This document shows, one piece after another, positions 1 through 57,383 of a stretch of DNA of 64,000 nt; positions within the stretch are counted from its first letter, which is position 1; each line of letters starts with the position of its first letter. This stretch comes from Bdellovibrio sp. ZAP7. Its GTDB lineage: Bacteria > Bdellovibrionota > UBA1018 > CAIMNF01. The position numbers and the translations under genes are program-made. Under the pieces are notes generated by a model. The model was not told the DNA's origin. It made no database searches and saw only the letters and a program-made list of their open reading frames with translations. The stretch lies in contig CAMCGZ010000002.1 in assembly GCA_945874535.1 (NCBI GenBank), positions 73,585 to 137,584 of the forward strand, given 5' to 3'.

Positions 1-572
1 CCGTTCAGAATGGCCAGATCCTCAATTATGCGAAGTTCGCACGAGAGGTTGGAGCCAGTATTGTAACGGTGCAAAGCTACTTTAAGATTCTCGAGGATAC
101 CTTGGTCGGATTCTTGTTGAATCCGTTTCATGAGTCGGTTCGGAAACGTCAGCGGAATGCTCCAAAGTTCTATTTTTTTGATCTCGGGGTGACCCGGGCA
201 CTCTCGCAGTCCCAGGAGTCACGGCTCATGCCGGGTACGGGGGCTTACGGAAAAGCCTTCGAGCATTTTGTCATTTTGGAAATCCATCGCTGGATCCATC
301 TGCATGAAAAGGATTGGTCCCTGAGCTATTTGATGACTCAAGCCGAGGTGGAGATCGACCTCATTATCGAGAAGTCGAAGCGGGACCGCTGGGTGGTGGA
401 AATCAAATCGACCGATCGGGTGGATGAGGTGGAAGTCCGAAAGCTCGAGCGCATCGGGAGTGATGTGCTTCACTCCAAGATCTTTTATGTGTCGAAAGAT
501 CCGATCGAGCGCCGAATGGGTTCCGTGCATTGCCTGCCTTGGGAGAGGTTTTTGAGGGTGCTGGGGGAGTAG
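1..572 (+). CDS. AAA-family ATPase, C-terminal DUF4143-like domain; 5' end truncated by window edge (reading frame is open from nt 1)
   Basis: Frame continues upstream of the annotated Met (…NGQILNYAKFAREVGASIVTVQSYFKILEDT…). Motif FYFFDLGV and overall C-terminal region resemble the DUF4143 domain of COG1373-type ATPases often found on mobile islands. Confidence 0.55.
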   Translation, partial: VQNGQILNYAKFAREVGASIVTVQSYFKILEDTLVGFLLNPFHESVRKRQRNAPKFYFFDLGVTRALSQSQESRLMPGTGAYGKAFEHFVILEIHRWIHLHEKDWSLSYLMTQAEVEIDLIIEKSKRDRWVVEIKSTDRVDEVEVRKLERIGSDVLHSKIFYVSKDPIERRMGSVHCLPWERFLRVLGE

Positions 573-617
573 GCATTCTCCCCCGCTCACCTCCATTCCA
601 ATCACGACTCCGAGGAT

Positions 618-719
618 GCGAGCTCCAGAGCAGTGCAGAGGGGGTTTTTGAGCGAGCCAGGATGGCGATAGCGAAAAGTCCCGGATGGACGGCCCCCCCG
701 GCACTGCTCTGAAGCTCGC
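618..719. repeat. Long inverted repeat: 19-bp arms GCGAGCTCCAGAGCAGTGC / GCACTGCTCTGAAGCTCGC (1 mismatch), 64-nt spacer containing GGGGG…CCCCCCC
   Basis: Arms read directly at 618-636 and 701-719. A nested G5/C7 pairing is possible. Non-coding region between the ATPase gene and tRNA-Cys. Confidence 0.5.
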
Positions 720-741
720 ATGTTCTAGCTGATGATTTTGA

Positions 742-763
742 ATGGAGGTGACGGTCGGAATCG
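742..763. repeat. 22-bp direct repeat (ATGGAGGTGACGGTCGGAATCG) identical to the 3' end of tRNA-Cys plus 1 flanking nt; att-like remnant
   Basis: Identical 22-mer at 742-763 and 970-991. The second copy overlaps tRNA-Cys T-loop through CCA. Confidence 0.65.
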
Positions 764-917
764 GCCAAGCGCTCGGGCTCACTTCACGTTCGCCCTCCGC
801 CTGGCCACCGCGCAGGCCTTTCGCTCGCATCACGCTCGCTCAGCACCCATTCAGGGTGCCGGCCTGCTTGCTTCGATTCCTCCCTTTCACCCTGAAGTTC
901 TTTCCCGTGACTTTCCC

Positions 918-957
918 TTTTGAGAAAGTCGAAGTGAGACGAACTCAAAAGGGAAAG
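918..957 (-). terminator. Perfect 14-bp inverted repeat hairpin (CTTTCCCTTTTGAG / CTCAAAAGGGAAAG) 13 nt downstream of the tRNA-Cys 3' end; possible tRNA terminator
   Basis: Read directly. No strong T-tract follows, so its terminator function is uncertain. Confidence 0.3.
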
Positions 958-970
958 GCACGAGGAAAGA

Positions 971-1046
971 TGGAGGTGACGGTCGGAATCGAACCGACAA
1001 ACAACGGTTTTGCAAACCGTGCCATTAGCCATTCTGGTACGTCACC
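971..1046 (-). tRNA. tRNA-Cys(GCA), 73 nt + encoded CCA
   Basis: Minus-strand sequence GGTGACG-TA-CCAG…; anticodon stem ACGGT/ACCGT with loop TTGCAAA (anticodon GCA). T-stem GTCGG/CCGAC with loop TTCGATT. Acceptor GGTGACG/CGTCACC, discriminator U73 (typical for Cys), then CCA. Confidence 0.9.
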
Positions 1047-52987: not shown

Positions 52988-53026
52988 GCCGGGGTGGCGA
53001 AATTGGTAGACGCACAGGACTTAAAA
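52988..53026 (+). tRNA. Disrupted host tRNA-Leu(UAA), 5' part (nt 1-39: acceptor 5' strand through anticodon loop CTTAAAA)
   Basis: GCCGGGGTGGCGAAATTGGTAGACGCACAGGACTTAAAA then diverges (CTTTTGGCG…) instead of TCCTG. Completes perfectly with 57411-57460. Confidence 0.8.
53000..53026. repeat. Left copy of 27-bp direct repeat (AAATTGGTAGACGCACAGGACTTAAAA) = att core, tRNA-Leu nt 13-39
   Basis: Perfect identity with 57384-57410; flanking bases differ (G vs A upstream, C vs T downstream). Confidence 0.85.
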
Positions 53027-53077
53027 CTTTTGGCGAGTTTTGGCTAAGTAATTGATATTTTTAAGGATAAATCTCTA

Positions 53078-53296
53078 ATGGTAGAGCAGAAAACCCTCAA
53101 AAAGGTAGAGCAATCTACCGATAAGATCGTAGATATGGCGAGCTTCCGCGAAGCAAAGATGCTTTACGAAATCTCCCAGCGTATAAACCCTCAACACACA
53201 CGAGAGGAAATCTACGAAGCGGTAGAGTTTTTTAAAGCAAATGAAAAGAGAACGAAAGATTCCAGAAAATGCGGAGGTGTTCTTCACACTCATTAA
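53078..53296 (+). CDS. Small ORF (72 aa) upstream of and overlapping the integrase start; doubtful
   Basis: Only ORF evidence; contains the two GGTAGAGCA repeats. Confidence 0.2.
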   Translation: MVEQKTLKKVEQSTDKIVDMASFREAKMLYEISQRINPQHTREEIYEAVEFFKANEKRTKDSRKCGGVLHTH

Positions 53297-54419
53297 GCCG
53301 ACTCCAAACAAGGAGGGGCCGAATGCTCGTCGCTCATTTGCTTTCATCATGGACATTCAATACGCTGATGGCCGCCGCGATCAACCTCGCTACCAGTTTC
53401 CCGAAGGCGACGACCGACTAAAGGTCATCAATAAATCCTACAAGATCGCCGACGATAAAAACGAAGCCTTCGAGAAGTGCCTCAAGCTCGCTTTAGACCT
53501 TCAAAAGAAACTTTACGTTGAGCACGGTCTTGAGAAAAAGACGGTCTTCAATCAGGAAAACTACGGAGTGCTGGATCAGTTTTTCGACTGGAAATACAGC
53601 GCGAAGAAAACGAAAGATAAAACTGCCGCGTACAACGATTTCCGCCGCGCAGTCGATGCCGTTGGTTCAATTCCGCTGCAAACTGCAACTAAGGCGGAAA
53701 TCCAGAAAGCGATCTCCGCCGCCGAAAATAAACAGCAACGGAGAATTGCGAGCCGCTTGAACATGATTTTTAAGTATCTCAAGCGAGATATTGTTTTGGA
53801 TAAGGACAAGAAAAAAAGAGTTTCTGTCCGCTACCTGAACGAAAAAGAATTCGCCTCGGTGATGAAGCTCATTAAGGACGAAAATCTGCGCTTAGTTTTC
53901 GAGATGGCCTTTCATTCCGGCTGTCGCATGGGCGAACTTTTCGCTTTAAATGAAGCTGATTTGCGTGCAGGGTTGCTGACCGTCGATAAGCAAATGCTCC
54001 GAACCGAAGAGGCTGTCCGTCGTCGGAAGCAAGAATACAAAGCCAAGGGCAAAACTTGGACGAATTGGATTCCGAAACCTACTGACCTGACCACCCCGAC
54101 AAAAAACGAACAAAGTCGGCGGGTCGTCGTTTTCGAAGAGTTCGCTCCCGCCTTTAGAAAATGGTGCGAGCTGGATTACGAAACAAAATTTAAGCTGCGG
54201 CATTCGCGGTTAGCGGAGATTTTAAAGACCGCTTGCGAGCAGAAGTTTCCGCAAAATGCTCAGAAACAATGCGTAGCTCATTGGACCGCGCCCCTCAACT
54301 TGGAAACCGCATCGAGGTTTGCCAGGAATTTTACACAGGCTACGAACTCCACAACGAGAACATCACCGTCCTCAAGTCGCTTATGCTGGCAAAAAAATAA
54401 TCGTTACGGGCGCCCGTAA
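53241..54419 (+). CDS. int: Tyrosine-type site-specific integrase (catalytic Tyr position possibly substituted: …ETASRFARNF…)
   Basis: Core motifs …AFHSGCRMGELFAL… (Arg I) and …KLRHSRLAEIL… (H-x-x-R). C-terminal region aligns by eye to the T-x-R-Y-A-H nucleophile motif but reads R-F-A-R. Start could alternatively be Met at 53349. Confidence 0.75.
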   Translation: MKRERKIPENAEVFFTLIKPTPNKEGPNARRSFAFIMDIQYADGRRDQPRYQFPEGDDRLKVINKSYKIADDKNEAFEKCLKLALDLQKKLYVEHGLEKKTVFNQENYGVLDQFFDWKYSAKKTKDKTAAYNDFRRAVDAVGSIPLQTATKAEIQKAISAAENKQQRRIASRLNMIFKYLKRDIVLDKDKKKRVSVRYLNEKEFASVMKLIKDENLRLVFEMAFHSGCRMGELFALNEADLRAGLLTVDKQMLRTEEAVRRRKQEYKAKGKTWTNWIPKPTDLTTPTKNEQSRRVVVFEEFAPAFRKWCELDYETKFKLRHSRLAEILKTACEQKFPQNAQKQCVAHWTAPLNLETASRFARNFTQATNSTTRTSPSSSRLCWQKNNRYGRP

Positions 54420-54490
54420 CGCAACCTTAATTCTTGAATTGTCAAGACTCTTCAGGTAAGGTTTTTTCAAGTTTGAAAAAATGAGTGTAT

Positions 54491-54814
54491 GCCCCCATGG
54501 TGAAATCGGTAGACACAAAGGACTTCAATTGGAGCCTCGTCTGGGAAACCTTATGAGTGGACACAGGGATAACGGTGAACGCTTACTGCTTCGCAGTAGT
54601 TGCCAACACCGTGGGAACATCGAGCAAGAAATTGGGAGATGAGCGCCGTAGAGACTAGATACCTGTGCACCTAAAATTCGCAAGAATCACGGTGAAGATA
54701 TAGTCCAGACCACAAACAAGACCGATTTATTTCGGAGTTGGCGGCGAAAGTCGAAGTGGTAAGAAAATCCTTGCCCGTAAGGGAGTGCCAGTTCGATTCT
54801 GGCTGGGGGCACCA
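54491..54814 (+). tRNA. tRNA-Leu(UAA) interrupted by a group I intron in the anticodon loop (exons 54491-54525 and 54764-54814; mature 86 nt incl. CCA)
   Basis: Exon 1 GCCCCCATGGTGAAATCGGTAGACACAAAGGACTT. Exon 2 AAAATCCTTG-CCCGTAAGGG-AGT-GCCAGTTCGATTCTGGC-TGGGGGC-A-CCA. Acceptor GCCCCCA/TGGGGGC, anticodon stem AAGGA/TCCTT, loop CTT|AAAA, long variable arm (type II), discriminator A. Confidence 0.8.
54526..54763 (+). ncRNA. Group I intron (tRNA-Leu(UAA) anticodon-loop type, ~238 nt, no ORF)
   Basis: Inserted after U34, ends in G. R-like element CGTAGAGACTAGATACC (54648-54664) and a perfect S consensus AAGATATAGTCC (54695-54706) form P7. GAAA tetraloop (GCGAAAG) near the 3' end. P1 region CAATTGGAGCC resembles cyanobacterial tRNA-Leu introns (UUGAGCC). 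Confidence 0.75.
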
Positions 54815-54815
54815 A

Positions 54816-55259
54816 CTATTTTTTCTGAATCTTTTTTTGATTCTTACTCGATTTTTTTGAGATCGAGTTTGGATATCGATCAAGTGAACAAGCTTTCCGC
54901 ACCTCAGATAAAAGACTGTACTGCTTAACATCAGTGTACGGATTGAGAAACGTCTCCACATTTTTTAGCTCAGCTTCCCCGTACAGCGAAAAAGTCTCGG
55001 CGGGAATGTCGATGGTTGCTTCAACGTACTGACCTTTTTCATTAATCGTATTCGCTGGCACAAAAGACCGAAGCTTGAATCGGGTTTCGGAATTAGTTTT
55101 TGGATTAACGATAAAATACCAGCTCGGTTCATTCATCGCTTTAACAAGAAGTCCCTCAAGAGTGCAGGTGCCTTTTGGAAATCTCGTAAGGGCAAAGCTG
55201 GCCGAAGGAAATGCCAAGACCAAAATTAAAGATAAAAGAATTTTATTTTTAGTAAGCAT
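54816..55259 (-). CDS. Secreted hypothetical protein (147 aa), overlapping and co-directional with the C13 peptidase gene
   Basis: Signal peptide MLTKNKILLSLILVLAFPSASFA; Lys-rich C-terminus. 11-nt overlap with the upstream gene. Confidence 0.5.
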   Translation of the reverse strand: MLTKNKILLSLILVLAFPSASFALTRFPKGTCTLEGLLVKAMNEPSWYFIVNPKTNSETRFKLRSFVPANTINEKGQYVEATIDIPAETFSLYGEAELKNVETFLNPYTDVKQYSLLSEVRKACSLDRYPNSISKKSSKNQKKIQKK

Positions 55260-56754
55260 ATTCCAAGCATCTCCTAATCGACGAATACTCCTTGATCATA
55301 TTGTCGTCGCCATATTTCAATAAATCCAATTCAAGATTCAAAATTTCGTATTTACGACGGTCTTTTTCAACTTCAGCTAACTTAATTTTTATTTGCTGTG
55401 CATCCAACTGGCCTTGCTGGCGTTTCGCGGCTTGCTCTTGGGGGGACAGGCGATCCCAGTTCTTTGCGGACTCAGCAATACTCGCCTTGAGGTCCTGAAT
55501 CCTCAAATCAAGGTCATCAAGAATAGCAGCGGAATCTTTGCCTTTAAGATTTTGGATAGTCTTTTCCAAACTCCCTTTAAGATATTGATGGCGACTTCCT
55601 GGAATACCATCAGTTGAAATTCCCATCTTCCCTTTCATTCGCTCAAAATCTTCGAGCAAACTTGCGATCTGTTTGAAAGCATCGTCGGGATGCGTGGAGC
55701 AACCGCTGACAGATTGAATGGGACTGATTTTTTTAGATCTTCCTTCGAGGATTTTGTTTTTATTCTTCGTAAGAAACCACTCAAGACTTGTCGTCGGAAT
55801 ATTCTGCGGATTATCTAAGTTCGTCGCATACAAGTGGGCATCCCAGTAGGTCGCTTTGCTGTCTTTGTCGGTATCCAATTTCTTTTTCAAAGCATAAGGA
55901 AAGTTCTGTCCATATAGGTCCAGATCAATGGATTCAGATAAACTCGTTTTGTTTCCTTGTTGATTGGCGAACACACAAACATTCGAGGAGGTCAGCTCGG
56001 TTAAACCACCGCCATAGCAAATATTCGTCACAACTCGAATCTGATTCGTTAACGGGAACTCACGAAGTAAATCACCCAATTGATTTACTGTCATGCTTTC
56101 GCCCCAAAGTGTCACAGTAGAACCACCTTCGGGATCTTGTTCACCGTGATCGGTTATGTAGAGGGTTAAATTGTCGCCCGGTTTTAATTTTCCGCGAAGC
56201 TCTCGGAACTTGTCTTTTATATTTTGCGAAGTCGCCCCGCCGTCGAGTTCGCGTTTTTCGCCGCTAAAAAGATAATCGAGGGTAATTGTGCTCGGAGCTG
56301 CAGGTTTGTCTGACTTATCCGATTTAACACCCGTTCCATCCCCTGATGGGATTGTTCCCATTCGAGTGGGTTCCATTTTGGTCTCACTCGGCATCACTTG
56401 GGCCGAGGGAGGAGAACCATATGAACCGCCGCCGCCATACCGGCCCGGCTGTCCCATCTCTGGAAATATCGGCTGAGTACTTGGCGAGTTAGTGTCTTCG
56501 ACCTTGCCGCTACCGTAAAGCACCATGATGTGATCCGATGCAATTCTGTTGCTACGAAAAGCATCATACATCGTGCGAACATTTTCGAAGTACCGTTGAT
56601 GATTGCTGGCTCGGTTTGCCCCACCGTTGATAATGACCGCATAATTTTTGCCGTCTCCGTCGCCTGCATTTGCGACCGAGATTGCGAGAATTAAAATTAA
56701 AGAAAAATAAAGTTTAACCATTCCAGTTATCTTATCGACACAGATTAAGTTCAA
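55249..56754 (-). CDS. Secreted legumain-like cysteine peptidase (peptidase family C13, clan CD caspase-like fold) with C-terminal coiled-coil region
   Basis: Signal peptide (…ILILAISVANA). N-terminal …KNYAVIINGGANRASNHQRYF…IMVLYGSG…; catalytic His in …LTLYITDHGEQ… and Cys in …RVVTNICYGGG… ~43 residues apart, as in legumain (…YFTDHG… / …IEACESGS…). Confidence 0.7.
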   Translation of the reverse strand: MNLICVDKITGMVKLYFSLILILAISVANAGDGDGKNYAVIINGGANRASNHQRYFENVRTMYDAFRSNRIASDHIMVLYGSGKVEDTNSPSTQPIFPEMGQPGRYGGGGSYGSPPSAQVMPSETKMEPTRMGTIPSGDGTGVKSDKSDKPAAPSTITLDYLFSGEKRELDGGATSQNIKDKFRELRGKLKPGDNLTLYITDHGEQDPEGGSTVTLWGESMTVNQLGDLLREFPLTNQIRVVTNICYGGGLTELTSSNVCVFANQQGNKTSLSESIDLDLYGQNFPYALKKKLDTDKDSKATYWDAHLYATNLDNPQNIPTTSLEWFLTKNKNKILEGRSKKISPIQSVSGCSTHPDDAFKQIASLLEDFERMKGKMGISTDGIPGSRHQYLKGSLEKTIQNLKGKDSAAILDDLDLRIQDLKASIAESAKNWDRLSPQEQAAKRQQGQLDAQQIKIKLAEVEKDRRKYEILNLELDLLKYGDDNMIKEYSSIRRCLEYAY

Positions 56755-56839
56755 TTTAAAGAAATCGTTAAAGATTTCGACTTTTTGATCGCTCTAAATC
56801 GATTTCTTCCATTCTGGTTGATCTTCGTCCCGACTTTCG

Positions 56840-57154
56840 TCAGCACTTTGACGCCCAGGCCTTTAATCCAATACCGTTCAGACGATCCAAAGCACCTATT
56901 TTATCCATCCCATAAGCTTCGAGCACCTTTATAAAATCAAGCGGATGAATTTTTCCGGCGGACTCGTATTCTCGTAAAAGTTCGGTATCAATTCCTATTT
57001 TTTCTGCGGCTTCGTCGATTGTAACGGGATTACCCCGAATCCAATCCGCATTCATTTCGTAGTGTTCAGCTAATTCCTTCGCCCAGGCGCGAAGCACAAC
57101 CTCTTCCGCATCCGTGGGCTTACGGTCGCCGTAAAGCCATCTCTTTTTTCCCAT
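56840..57154 (-). CDS. Xis/AlpA-like HTH DNA-binding protein (putative excisionase/regulator)
   Basis: …PVTIDEAAEKIGIDTELLREYESAGKIHP… fits the HTH_17/excisionase pattern (xTxxEAAExLGxxxxTLxRxxxxGxxP). Gene sits at the attR-proximal end. Confidence 0.5.
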   Translation of the reverse strand: MGKKRWLYGDRKPTDAEEVVLRAWAKELAEHYEMNADWIRGNPVTIDEAAEKIGIDTELLREYESAGKIHPLDFIKVLEAYGMDKIGALDRLNGIGLKAWASKC

Positions 57155-57383
57155 TCAATTTAAGTCTAACGGACTTTTCTAAATCGGGCAAAGACCTCTA
57201 ACCACTAAGGTTTTTCGTCCAGTTCCTTGCAGCATCGGTGCAGCACGAGCCGCACCTTCAAGCTTCATATTCTAACCCCATAACAGCCGCCGGACTCCGG
57301 CGGTCCCGCCAAAACCGTGAACCCAAAACCAAGCCTCCGCGACCGGCGTTTTTCGCCGCAGCGCCCCCTTTTTGCCCAAATCA

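Follow-up and report, generated by a model that had tools for sequence, protein, structure and literature searches.

We identified a 228-bp unit, present or absent as a precise block, beside the only tRNA gene in a 64,000-nucleotide stretch of the Bdellovibrio sp. ZAP7 genome (contig CAMCGZ010000002.1), which is referred to here as the window. The gene encodes an intact tRNA-Cys(GCA) with an encoded CCA on the minus strand (971–1046; identified by ARAGORN and scoring 62.3 bits against Rfam RF00005, for which the threshold is 29 bits). The unit is bounded by the 3′ end of this tRNA and by a second, displaced copy of that end. We consider it probable that the arrangement records an old integrase-type insertion, whose non-coding product of about 200 bp has been retained and is probably functional, beside a flexible slot of one or two genes that in the window holds a defence-candidate ATPase.

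The repeated sequence, ATGGAGGTGACGGTCGGAATCG, is present exactly twice, at 742–763 and 970–991 (22/22 positions identical), as reported by a first-pass annotation made from the window sequence. No further match with up to three mismatches was found in the 64 kb, and 0 matches are expected from 100 shuffles. On the tRNA strand, the repeat begins at the third nucleotide of the seven-nucleotide T-loop and comprises the last 5 nt of this loop, the 3′ strand of the T-stem, the 3′ strand of the acceptor stem, the discriminator U, CCA, and a single nucleotide of the trailer. The proximal, attL-like copy (970–991) provides the functional tRNA 3′ end plus 1 nt, and the distal copy (742–763) is an attR-like fragment located at the inner edge of a variable region. 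The DNA between them, described as non-coding in the first-pass annotation, measures 206 bp (764–969) and contains no credible open reading frame (ORF). This insert and one repeat copy together make up the 228-bp unit.

The whole window is found, without a difference, within a 153-kb metagenome contig of ENA (ERZ27280281 k141_1252531). Locus L001 comprises the window and a further 8.8 kb to its left, with L001 positions equal to window positions plus 8,810. Syntenic loci were collected from Bdellovibrionales-type metagenome-assembled genomes and metagenomes using the adjacent SpoIID gene as an anchor, and six related Bdellovibrionales-type metagenome lineages form the comparison set. The closest relative of the window lineage is L007, with 91% nucleotide identity. 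A protein-based metagenome locus scan returned L007 as the sole close relative, the remaining 79 loci being distant SpoIID genes. In a neighbor-joining tree of 951 nt of SpoIID DNA, L007 is the sister of the window lineage; this pair is joined by L113, then by the pair L003 and L004, and further out by L110, L094, and L006. The insert-bearing lineages are about 14% diverged in SpoIID DNA, and the SpoIID protein of the more distant L094 is 75% identical. The tRNA-Cys sequence is the same in L003, L004, L006, L007, L110, and L113, and its readable 3′ part in L094 is also identical.

Alignment with L007 defines the limits of the unit. The window equals L007 plus exactly 228 bp (the 206-bp insert and one repeat copy): L007 3682–3860 aligns with L001 9393–9573, L007 3839–5010 aligns with L001 9780–10951, and a single 22-mer is common to both blocks. 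L007 has the empty-site configuration, in which an imperfect palindrome of about 165–185 nt, here termed hairpin A (578–763 in the window), directly abuts the tRNA. In L001 and L113, the same hairpin adjoins the distal copy instead, as expected if attR keeps the native downstream DNA. We take hairpin A to be the original trailer of tRNA-Cys, which the insertion moved away from the gene. Homology between L001 and L004 begins 1 nt outside (to the left of) the distal copy, which would be expected if the distal fragment was re-used in the L004 lineage; to the left of its distal copy, L004 carries sequence unrelated to hairpin A. The distal copy of L003 has a degenerate look, since it is truncated by a 31-bp deletion that removed the trailer and part of the acceptor.

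The duplications left at attL and attR by tyrosine-integrase islands and prophages provide the natural comparison, and the T-loop is one of the canonical crossover sublocations of tRNA-targeting integrases, used by P4-like and Ms6-type enzymes (10.1101/2020.11.02.365908; PMC1762012). An intact tRNA with a repeat of its 3′ part, a repeat boundary in the T-loop, and an empty-site allele were all found at the window locus, and the att-type nature proposed for the repeat in the first-pass annotation is borne out by this combination, including the exact absence of the 228 bp from the closest relative. A separate case is present in L094, which carries a direct copy, TGGAGGTGACGGTCAGAAT (19/20), 143 nt from its tRNA. 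Its repeat identity also stops in the T-loop, within 2 nt of the L001 repeat boundary, although the L094 insert is unrelated to that of L001 and opens with a canonical bidirectional terminator.

Because L007 is nested among the insert-bearing lineages L113, L003, and L004, one precise loss in L007 is the most parsimonious history, and we infer that the polymorphism runs in this direction. We propose that the two 22-bp copies would be the attL- and attR-type junctions of an old tyrosine-integrase-type insertion into the T-loop-to-3′-end segment of tRNA-Cys, an integrase having taken part in forming the repeat. The DNA between the copies would then be a miniaturised remnant or a small non-autonomous element, not an island. 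The insertion would have displaced the native tRNA 3′ fragment and its trailer palindrome by 228 bp, supplying a new tRNA 3′ end and a new hairpin, H1. It would be older than the split of at least four lineages, and the unit may have been lost precisely from L007 through excision or through slippage of one 22-bp repeat on the other. Retention of the insert may be due to a role of its 91-nt core, most likely within the primary transcript of tRNA-Cys, as a structured RNA trailing its 3′ end. The DNA beyond the displaced fragment is a small flexible slot, occupied in different lineages by different genes, mostly of defence type.

The insert is present in a 258–260-bp form in L113, L003, and L004. 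Relative to this form, L001 lacks 53–54 nt inside hairpin H1, and the gap is flanked by the direct repeats AGTCGA..GAGACGA. An nhmmer search of 1.34 Mb of sequence with an insert profile matched this locus only. The end distal to the tRNA is formed by hairpin H3 (764–805), which has an 8-bp basal stem (764–771/798–805) and a variable apex; according to RNAalifold, the stem is conserved and the apex contains two compensatory pairs. It overlaps a conserved core of 91 nt (794–884), tentatively assigned to the minus strand and predicted to adopt a small Y-shaped fold that includes the hairpin GGCACCC-UGAAU-GGGUGCU. Across L001, L003, L004, and L113, 89 of the 91 core columns are invariant (98%), compared with 7/18 and 7/15 in the core flanks, 111/144 in the spacer between tRNA and SpoIID, and 763/951 in SpoIID itself (a background of about 77–80%).

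The remainder of the insert extends from the core to the tRNA. A degenerate inverted copy of the T-loop-to-3′-end segment of the tRNA (TTCGATTCCTCCCTTTCACCCTGA, 872–895), absent from the first-pass annotation, has an equivalent in L003 and L004 that is detected at six mismatches. Together with 970–993, it forms the outer arms of a 122-nt palindrome (872–993), and L001 9682–9803 shows 72% self-complementarity over 127 nt. Hairpin H1 (900–969) adjoins the tRNA and has arms at 901–924 and 944–967 (24 nt, 88% complementary). It contains the perfect 14-bp hairpin of the first-pass annotation, which is real but was placed at 918; its arms are 911–924 and 944–957. RNAalifold predicts a basal stem of about 26 bp for H1, with three compensatory double changes between sub-clades, giving five or six compensatory pairs in H1 and H3 together. 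The region 573–1046 folds far better than shuffled sequences (z = −10.5). The minus (tRNA) strand folds slightly better than the plus strand (−84.5 versus −79.1 kcal/mol), with three invariant G·U pairs that are A·C on the opposite strand.

The invariance of the core and the conserved, compensated hairpins point to purifying selection. The insert is thus probably functional and not simply the decayed remnant considered in the first-pass annotation. The strand pattern weakly favors an RNA within the tRNA-Cys transcript, and the insert may perhaps be a tRNA-Cys trailer RNA acting at the RNA level. A scan of 1–1300 detected no terminator-like site in 573–970, with no U-tract after H1 and no terminator between the tRNA and the insert, unlike in L094 and L123, where tRNA-Cys is followed by a canonical terminator. 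H1 and hairpin A were rejected as Rho-independent terminators, as neither is followed by a U-tract. No Rfam family matched the insert or hairpin A at or above the gathering threshold, the only matches being to generic long hairpins (miRNA precursors) far below it; permissive Rfam searches returned nothing over 794–884 and only the tRNA above threshold.

Other identities for the insert were considered and discarded. A small ORF was rejected, as the only ORFs run through the tRNA; furthermore, the 53–54-nt indel is not clearly a multiple of three, so that a frame would probably not be kept. A pseudo-tRNA or transfer-messenger RNA in unit X (described below) or in the insert was also rejected: at a 70% threshold, ARAGORN made equally many calls inside coding genes and in the modules, which renders its calls uninformative. 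Miniature inverted-repeat transposable elements and repetitive extragenic palindromes were likewise rejected, since no dispersed copies occur in the 64-kb window, in the other recovered loci, or in the 1.34 Mb searched. No matching target-site duplication flanking the insert was seen by reading the sequence.

On the far side of the distal copy, hairpin A has outer arms at 587–601/737–751 and inner arms at 616–644/693–721 (29 bp). The segment 587–601, also missing from the first-pass annotation, is an inverted partial copy of the tRNA 3′ end and trailer and pairs with the distal repeat. The outer arms of hairpin A in L007 are 22 nt long and perfect (3638–3659/3831–3852), and L113 also has perfect 22-nt arms. 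The alignment of hairpin A from L001, L007, and L113 predicts 58 pairs. In the predicted tRNA-strand RNA, the tRNA 3′ end (L007) or the distal copy (L001 and L113) would lie within a duplex of about 20 bp at the base of hairpin A.

The trailer regions in these genomes consist of modules ending in copies of the tRNA 3′ end and trailer, in alternating orientation. Besides hairpin A, they comprise unit X, of 150 nt (GGTGACG...CGCACCGTCACCTCCATT), which is found at L007 3497–3659 and, 90% identical, at L004 9154–9316; a short unit of 47 nt at the left edge of the L007 cargo; and palindrome B in L004. The integron attC motifs RYYYAAC and GTTRRRY are absent from both strands of hairpin A, unit X, the H1 region, and palindrome B, and an attC identity was discarded. 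Nor do the modules recur as dispersed repeats. They could possibly be scars left by additional integrations, in some of which identity would be confined to the acceptor/CCA end; they could also have arisen by palindrome extension through template switching, or serve as recombination sites for a recombinase acting in trans.

Near-identical contigs provide a view of these modules within populations. L113 (1350–1800) and L114 (1350–2040), which derive from different samples and are 99.9% identical over 1.7 kb, differ in that one of them has an additional X/hairpin-A module in the interval from the ATPase gene to the distal repeat. In the L004-type strain, five independent Logan contigs break off at the same position, L004 9337, which falls within a duplicated module. 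Taken together, the L113/L114 difference and these contig ends suggest that the palindromic modules vary in copy number within populations or break assemblies. Several long metagenome contigs also end in or beside the tRNA-Cys trailer, and such contig ends, considered together with the L113/L114 difference, point to population-level heterogeneity at this site.

To the left of the distal copy, gene content varies between lineages. In the window, this position is occupied by the 3′ part (last 190 codons and stop) of an ATPase gene with AAA_14 and DUF4143 domains on the plus strand (1–572); the full gene spans L001 8231–9382 and encodes 383 amino acids. The protein matches the Pfam profiles AAA_14 (9.7e-22) and DUF4143 (1.8e-33) as well as the PADLOC defence candidate PDC-S01 (PDLC04790, 1.5e-58), and by this profile match it is a putative defence gene. 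DUF4143 has been placed among the PD-(D/E)XK families (PMC3424549). The ATPase is also present in L113 (94% amino acid identity) and absent at this position from L007, L003, and L004, where other genes are found instead. It is accessory cargo in a variable slot, in keeping with the island-type gene recognized in the first-pass annotation. The L007 slot carries a GmrSD type IV restriction enzyme split into two ORFs. L003 and L004 carry a TetR gene and an RND-OEP fusion, L003 additionally having RCC1-repeat and LamG proteins, and L094 carries DUF4258 plus a helix-turn-helix (HTH) protein, an SLT-domain protein, and a PLD nuclease. Between L001 and L007, the differing segment extends from the end of a 98-aa ORF to the start of hairpin A and measures about 1.25 kb in L001, with the ATPase gene, and 3.5 kb in L007.

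Within the slot, the two GmrSD ORFs of L007 (820–2918) encode GmrSD_N (204 aa) and GmrSD_C with DUF5655 (495 aa), overlap by 4 nt, and are either a pseudogene with a frameshift or a true two-part system. The 98-aa ORF and the spacer that follows it (L001 7843–8230) have a low GC content (0.43–0.44); they are present in L001 and L007 and absent from L113, where the end of the helicase gene is followed almost directly by the region upstream of the ATPase. A 47-nt AT-rich palindrome (L001 8193–8239) overlaps the ATPase start.

Several observations weigh against an integrase-type insertion with a retained trailer RNA. Neither the 8.8 kb lying downstream of the tRNA nor the variable segments of the six lineages compared, nor other tRNA-Cys–SpoIID loci, yielded an integrase, and Pfam searches of the 8.8 kb to the left of the window and of the variable segments of L003, L004, L007, L094, and L113 revealed no recombinase domain. 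Exact scans of IMG/VR with the 22-mer and the insert core gave 0 matches, and a BLAST search with 573–969 found no match in phage and plasmid collections; as neither the 22-mer nor the insert was found on a phage, plasmid, or viral contig, the parent element supposed here is unobserved. Other tRNA-Cys–SpoIID lineages (L106, L122, L123, and L120) lack the repeat. Replication slippage could likewise remove, and might conceivably create, a 22-bp repeat whose copies lie 228 bp from each other, and the inverted partial tRNA-end copies (587–601, 872–895, and units X and A in relatives) are left unexplained by a simple integration model. With regard to the RNA, all compensatory changes fall on one phylogenetic split and fit a DNA-level palindrome equally well, and no terminator or promoter was detected for the predicted trailer RNA.

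These points leave room for other accounts, of which the strongest dispenses with a scar altogether: the insert would be a functional non-coding RNA gene of the tRNA-Cys 3′-external-transcribed-spacer type, co-transcribed with the tRNA, and the second tRNA-end copy would belong to it by design, serving for instance in processing or as a signal for stability. The near-invariant core (89/91) between variable flanks, the conserved hairpins with compensatory changes, the slightly better minus-strand fold with its three invariant G·U pairs, the missing terminator between tRNA and insert, and the fold z-score of −10.5 would all be expected of such a gene. We nevertheless regard this account as unlikely, considering that L007 lacks the whole unit and has a normal tRNA, so that the unit is dispensable, and that the acceptor part of the distal copy is lost in L003 through the 31-bp deletion, which indicates that the copy is not strongly constrained. 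In addition, a repeat of this kind encloses an unrelated insert in L094, and no Rfam family matches. An RNA gene is compatible with an integrase origin and competes with it only as the reason for the existence of the repeat. Less probable still is an origin without any recombinase, in which palindrome-driven replication errors, that is, template switching that extends quasi-palindromes and slippage between short repeats, made both the inverted and the direct copies, the 228-bp polymorphism being an ordinary repeat-mediated deletion or duplication. Such errors would account for the nested palindromes with tRNA-end and trailer copies as arms, for the module difference between the near-identical population contigs L113 and L114, for the 53–54-nt gap between the direct repeats AGTCGA..GAGACGA that separates L001 from the long insert form, and for the many assemblies that break in the trailer region. 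However, they leave unexplained why the direct repeats end in the T-loop in two independent cases with unrelated inserts, where 206–260 bp of unrelated, well-conserved sequence came from, and why lineages cease to be homologous precisely where the tRNA-derived block has its outer edge.

A more speculative account, which we consider distinctly improbable, views the tRNA-Cys of this Bdellovibrionales clade as the anchor of an integrase-less cassette platform. The 200–260-nt structured element and the serial palindromes (47–185 nt) would act as folded attC- or pdif-like sites for a recombinase supplied in trans, defence genes such as the DUF4143 ATPase and GmrSD would be swapped between them, and the 98%-invariant core, far from being a relic, would be a fixed recombination or regulatory site. 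The exchange of cassettes is explained equally well by homologous recombination in the flanks. Least credible of all, in our assessment, is the tandem array suggested in the first-pass annotation, in which the 228-bp unit is the proximal member and a larger island including the DUF4143 ATPase extends leftward to a third att copy and an integrase. Such an array would fit the variable DNA with defence-type genes to the left of the distal copy, as well as the L004 sequence unrelated to hairpin A at this position, which is consistent with re-use of the distal site. However, L001 1–11000 contains no third copy of the 22-mer with up to six mismatches, and the 8.8 kb to the left of the window encode neither a recombinase in general nor an integrase in particular. 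The additional 22-mer matches with up to three to six mismatches, counted over the window, its upstream region, and the relatives, are inverted partial copies only, all of them in relatives. The compositional shift anticipated for an island is not seen either (GC content of 0.53 in the ATPase gene, compared with 0.55–0.56 in its neighbors).

The gene order to the left of the window bears on the same question. Towards the tRNA, the 8.8 kb encode a HAMP-SpoIIE phosphatase (minus strand), a 369-aa protein, a 958-aa Big_1/trypsin protein (minus strand), EamA, a 138-aa protein, a DEAD-box helicase, the 98-aa protein, and the DUF4143 ATPase. Upstream in L094, SpoIIE phosphatase, 369-aa protein, and EamA follow one another in the same order and orientation (42–47% amino acid identity), and the DEAD helicase also occurs in L003 and L004 (82% amino acid identity). 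A comparison across relatives, which the first-pass annotation had called for, gives a lineage-specific segment of only about 1.25 kb, from the 98-aa ORF to hairpin A, and a polymorphic 228-bp unit; the far upstream part is syntenic core. Given this syntenic core, the small extent of the difference, and the lack of a third copy or an integrase, a tandem array is unsupported and is largely refuted within the first 8.8 kb. The 958-aa gene (L001 1849–4725; He_PIG, Big_1, and trypsin domains), located between the 369-aa gene and EamA, has no L094 counterpart and so marks another indel, independent of the first, in an upstream region that is syntenic in all other respects.

Three further features were noted elsewhere in the window and in related loci. 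Directly after the der/engA GTPase gene, window positions 53000–57200 form a low-GC patch (0.42–0.47 compared with about 0.56). Its ORFs comprise three of 392, 147, and 501 aa that match nothing in Pfam and one of 104 aa that has a weak HTH of the MerR/excisionase-like type; a DUF900 hydrolase comes next. The ORFs tested showed no integrase, and the patch looks like a separate horizontally acquired segment. Near the tRNA, the 5′ end of the SpoIID ORF (1242–1300) contains a perfect 14-bp inverted repeat, CTGAGCTCGCTTGC and GCAAGCGAGCTCAG, 31 nt apart. In a lineage with 68% SpoIID identity, the DNA beside the tRNA-Cys 3′ end (L120 1–292 and L121 1–299) resembles the C-terminal end of an ISL3-type transposase, based on a by-eye reading of a translated motif, and both contigs end at this transposase-like sequence.

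The insertion that we favor can be placed beside several known systems. It resembles the att duplications of integrases in that the direct repeat extends from the T-loop to the end of CCA, an intact tRNA is restored, the empty-site relative differs by the insert and one repeat, and the native downstream DNA lies with the distal fragment. It differs from them in having no integrase, mobility, or cargo genes, with only 206–260 bp of non-coding DNA between the repeats, and in that the unit is conserved, with a 98% invariant core, across lineages about 14% diverged in SpoIID DNA.

Signatures of tRNA fragments are used by island finders such as Islander to recognize degraded islands and tandem island arrays. 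As in these, a tRNA 3′ fragment is found downstream of an intact gene, with variable accessory genes beyond it; unlike these, the locus has no third fragment and no island-sized segment, and its remnant is under purifying selection. The 3′ETS-leuZ RNA of E. coli is a tRNA 3′ external transcribed spacer RNA. The possible likeness consists of a structured conserved sequence directly 3′ of a tRNA, on the same strand and with no terminator between; the insert of the window differs in ending at a second copy of the tRNA end and in being missing from a close relative.

In integron attC arrays, in clusters of attC sites lacking integrases (CALINs), and in the pdif modules of Acinetobacter, cassettes lie between palindromic or alternately inverted sites and the recombinase is encoded elsewhere. 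The locus shares with them single-gene accessory cassettes between imperfect palindromes of 47–185 nt without a local recombinase; the palindromes end in copies of a single motif, in this case the 3′ end of tRNA-Cys, that are inverted in alternation. It differs from them in that RYYYAAC/GTTRRRY cores are missing, no Xer-type site was identified, and the modules were seen at one locus only. Like defence hotspots beside tRNAs, it has a PDC-S01-like ATPase, a split GmrSD, DUF4258 plus an HTH protein, and a PLD nuclease at one position; unlike them, the slot is very small (one or two genes), and the TetR–RND efflux, RCC1, and LamG occupants are not defence genes.

The locus is a variant of a well-known phenomenon, and its one unexplained feature is the 98%-invariant core taken together with the serial tRNA-end palindromes. 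If the palindromes are recombination sites, they would represent a new cassette-exchange mechanism; otherwise, the locus amounts to an old att remnant of the ordinary kind, with a conserved core as its one unexplained part. It provides a clean natural pair of occupied and empty att sites in uncultured relatives of predatory bacteria, and it defines a flexible slot, very small and delimited by the displaced piece of the tRNA, in which defence-type genes are exchanged without a local recombinase. Repeats of tRNA fragments are mostly read as island boundaries, but here they enclose about 200 bp of non-coding DNA that is nearly unchanged across species. Such conservation suggests the co-option, possibly as a tRNA trailer RNA, of an integration scar or of a tiny element flanked by att sites.

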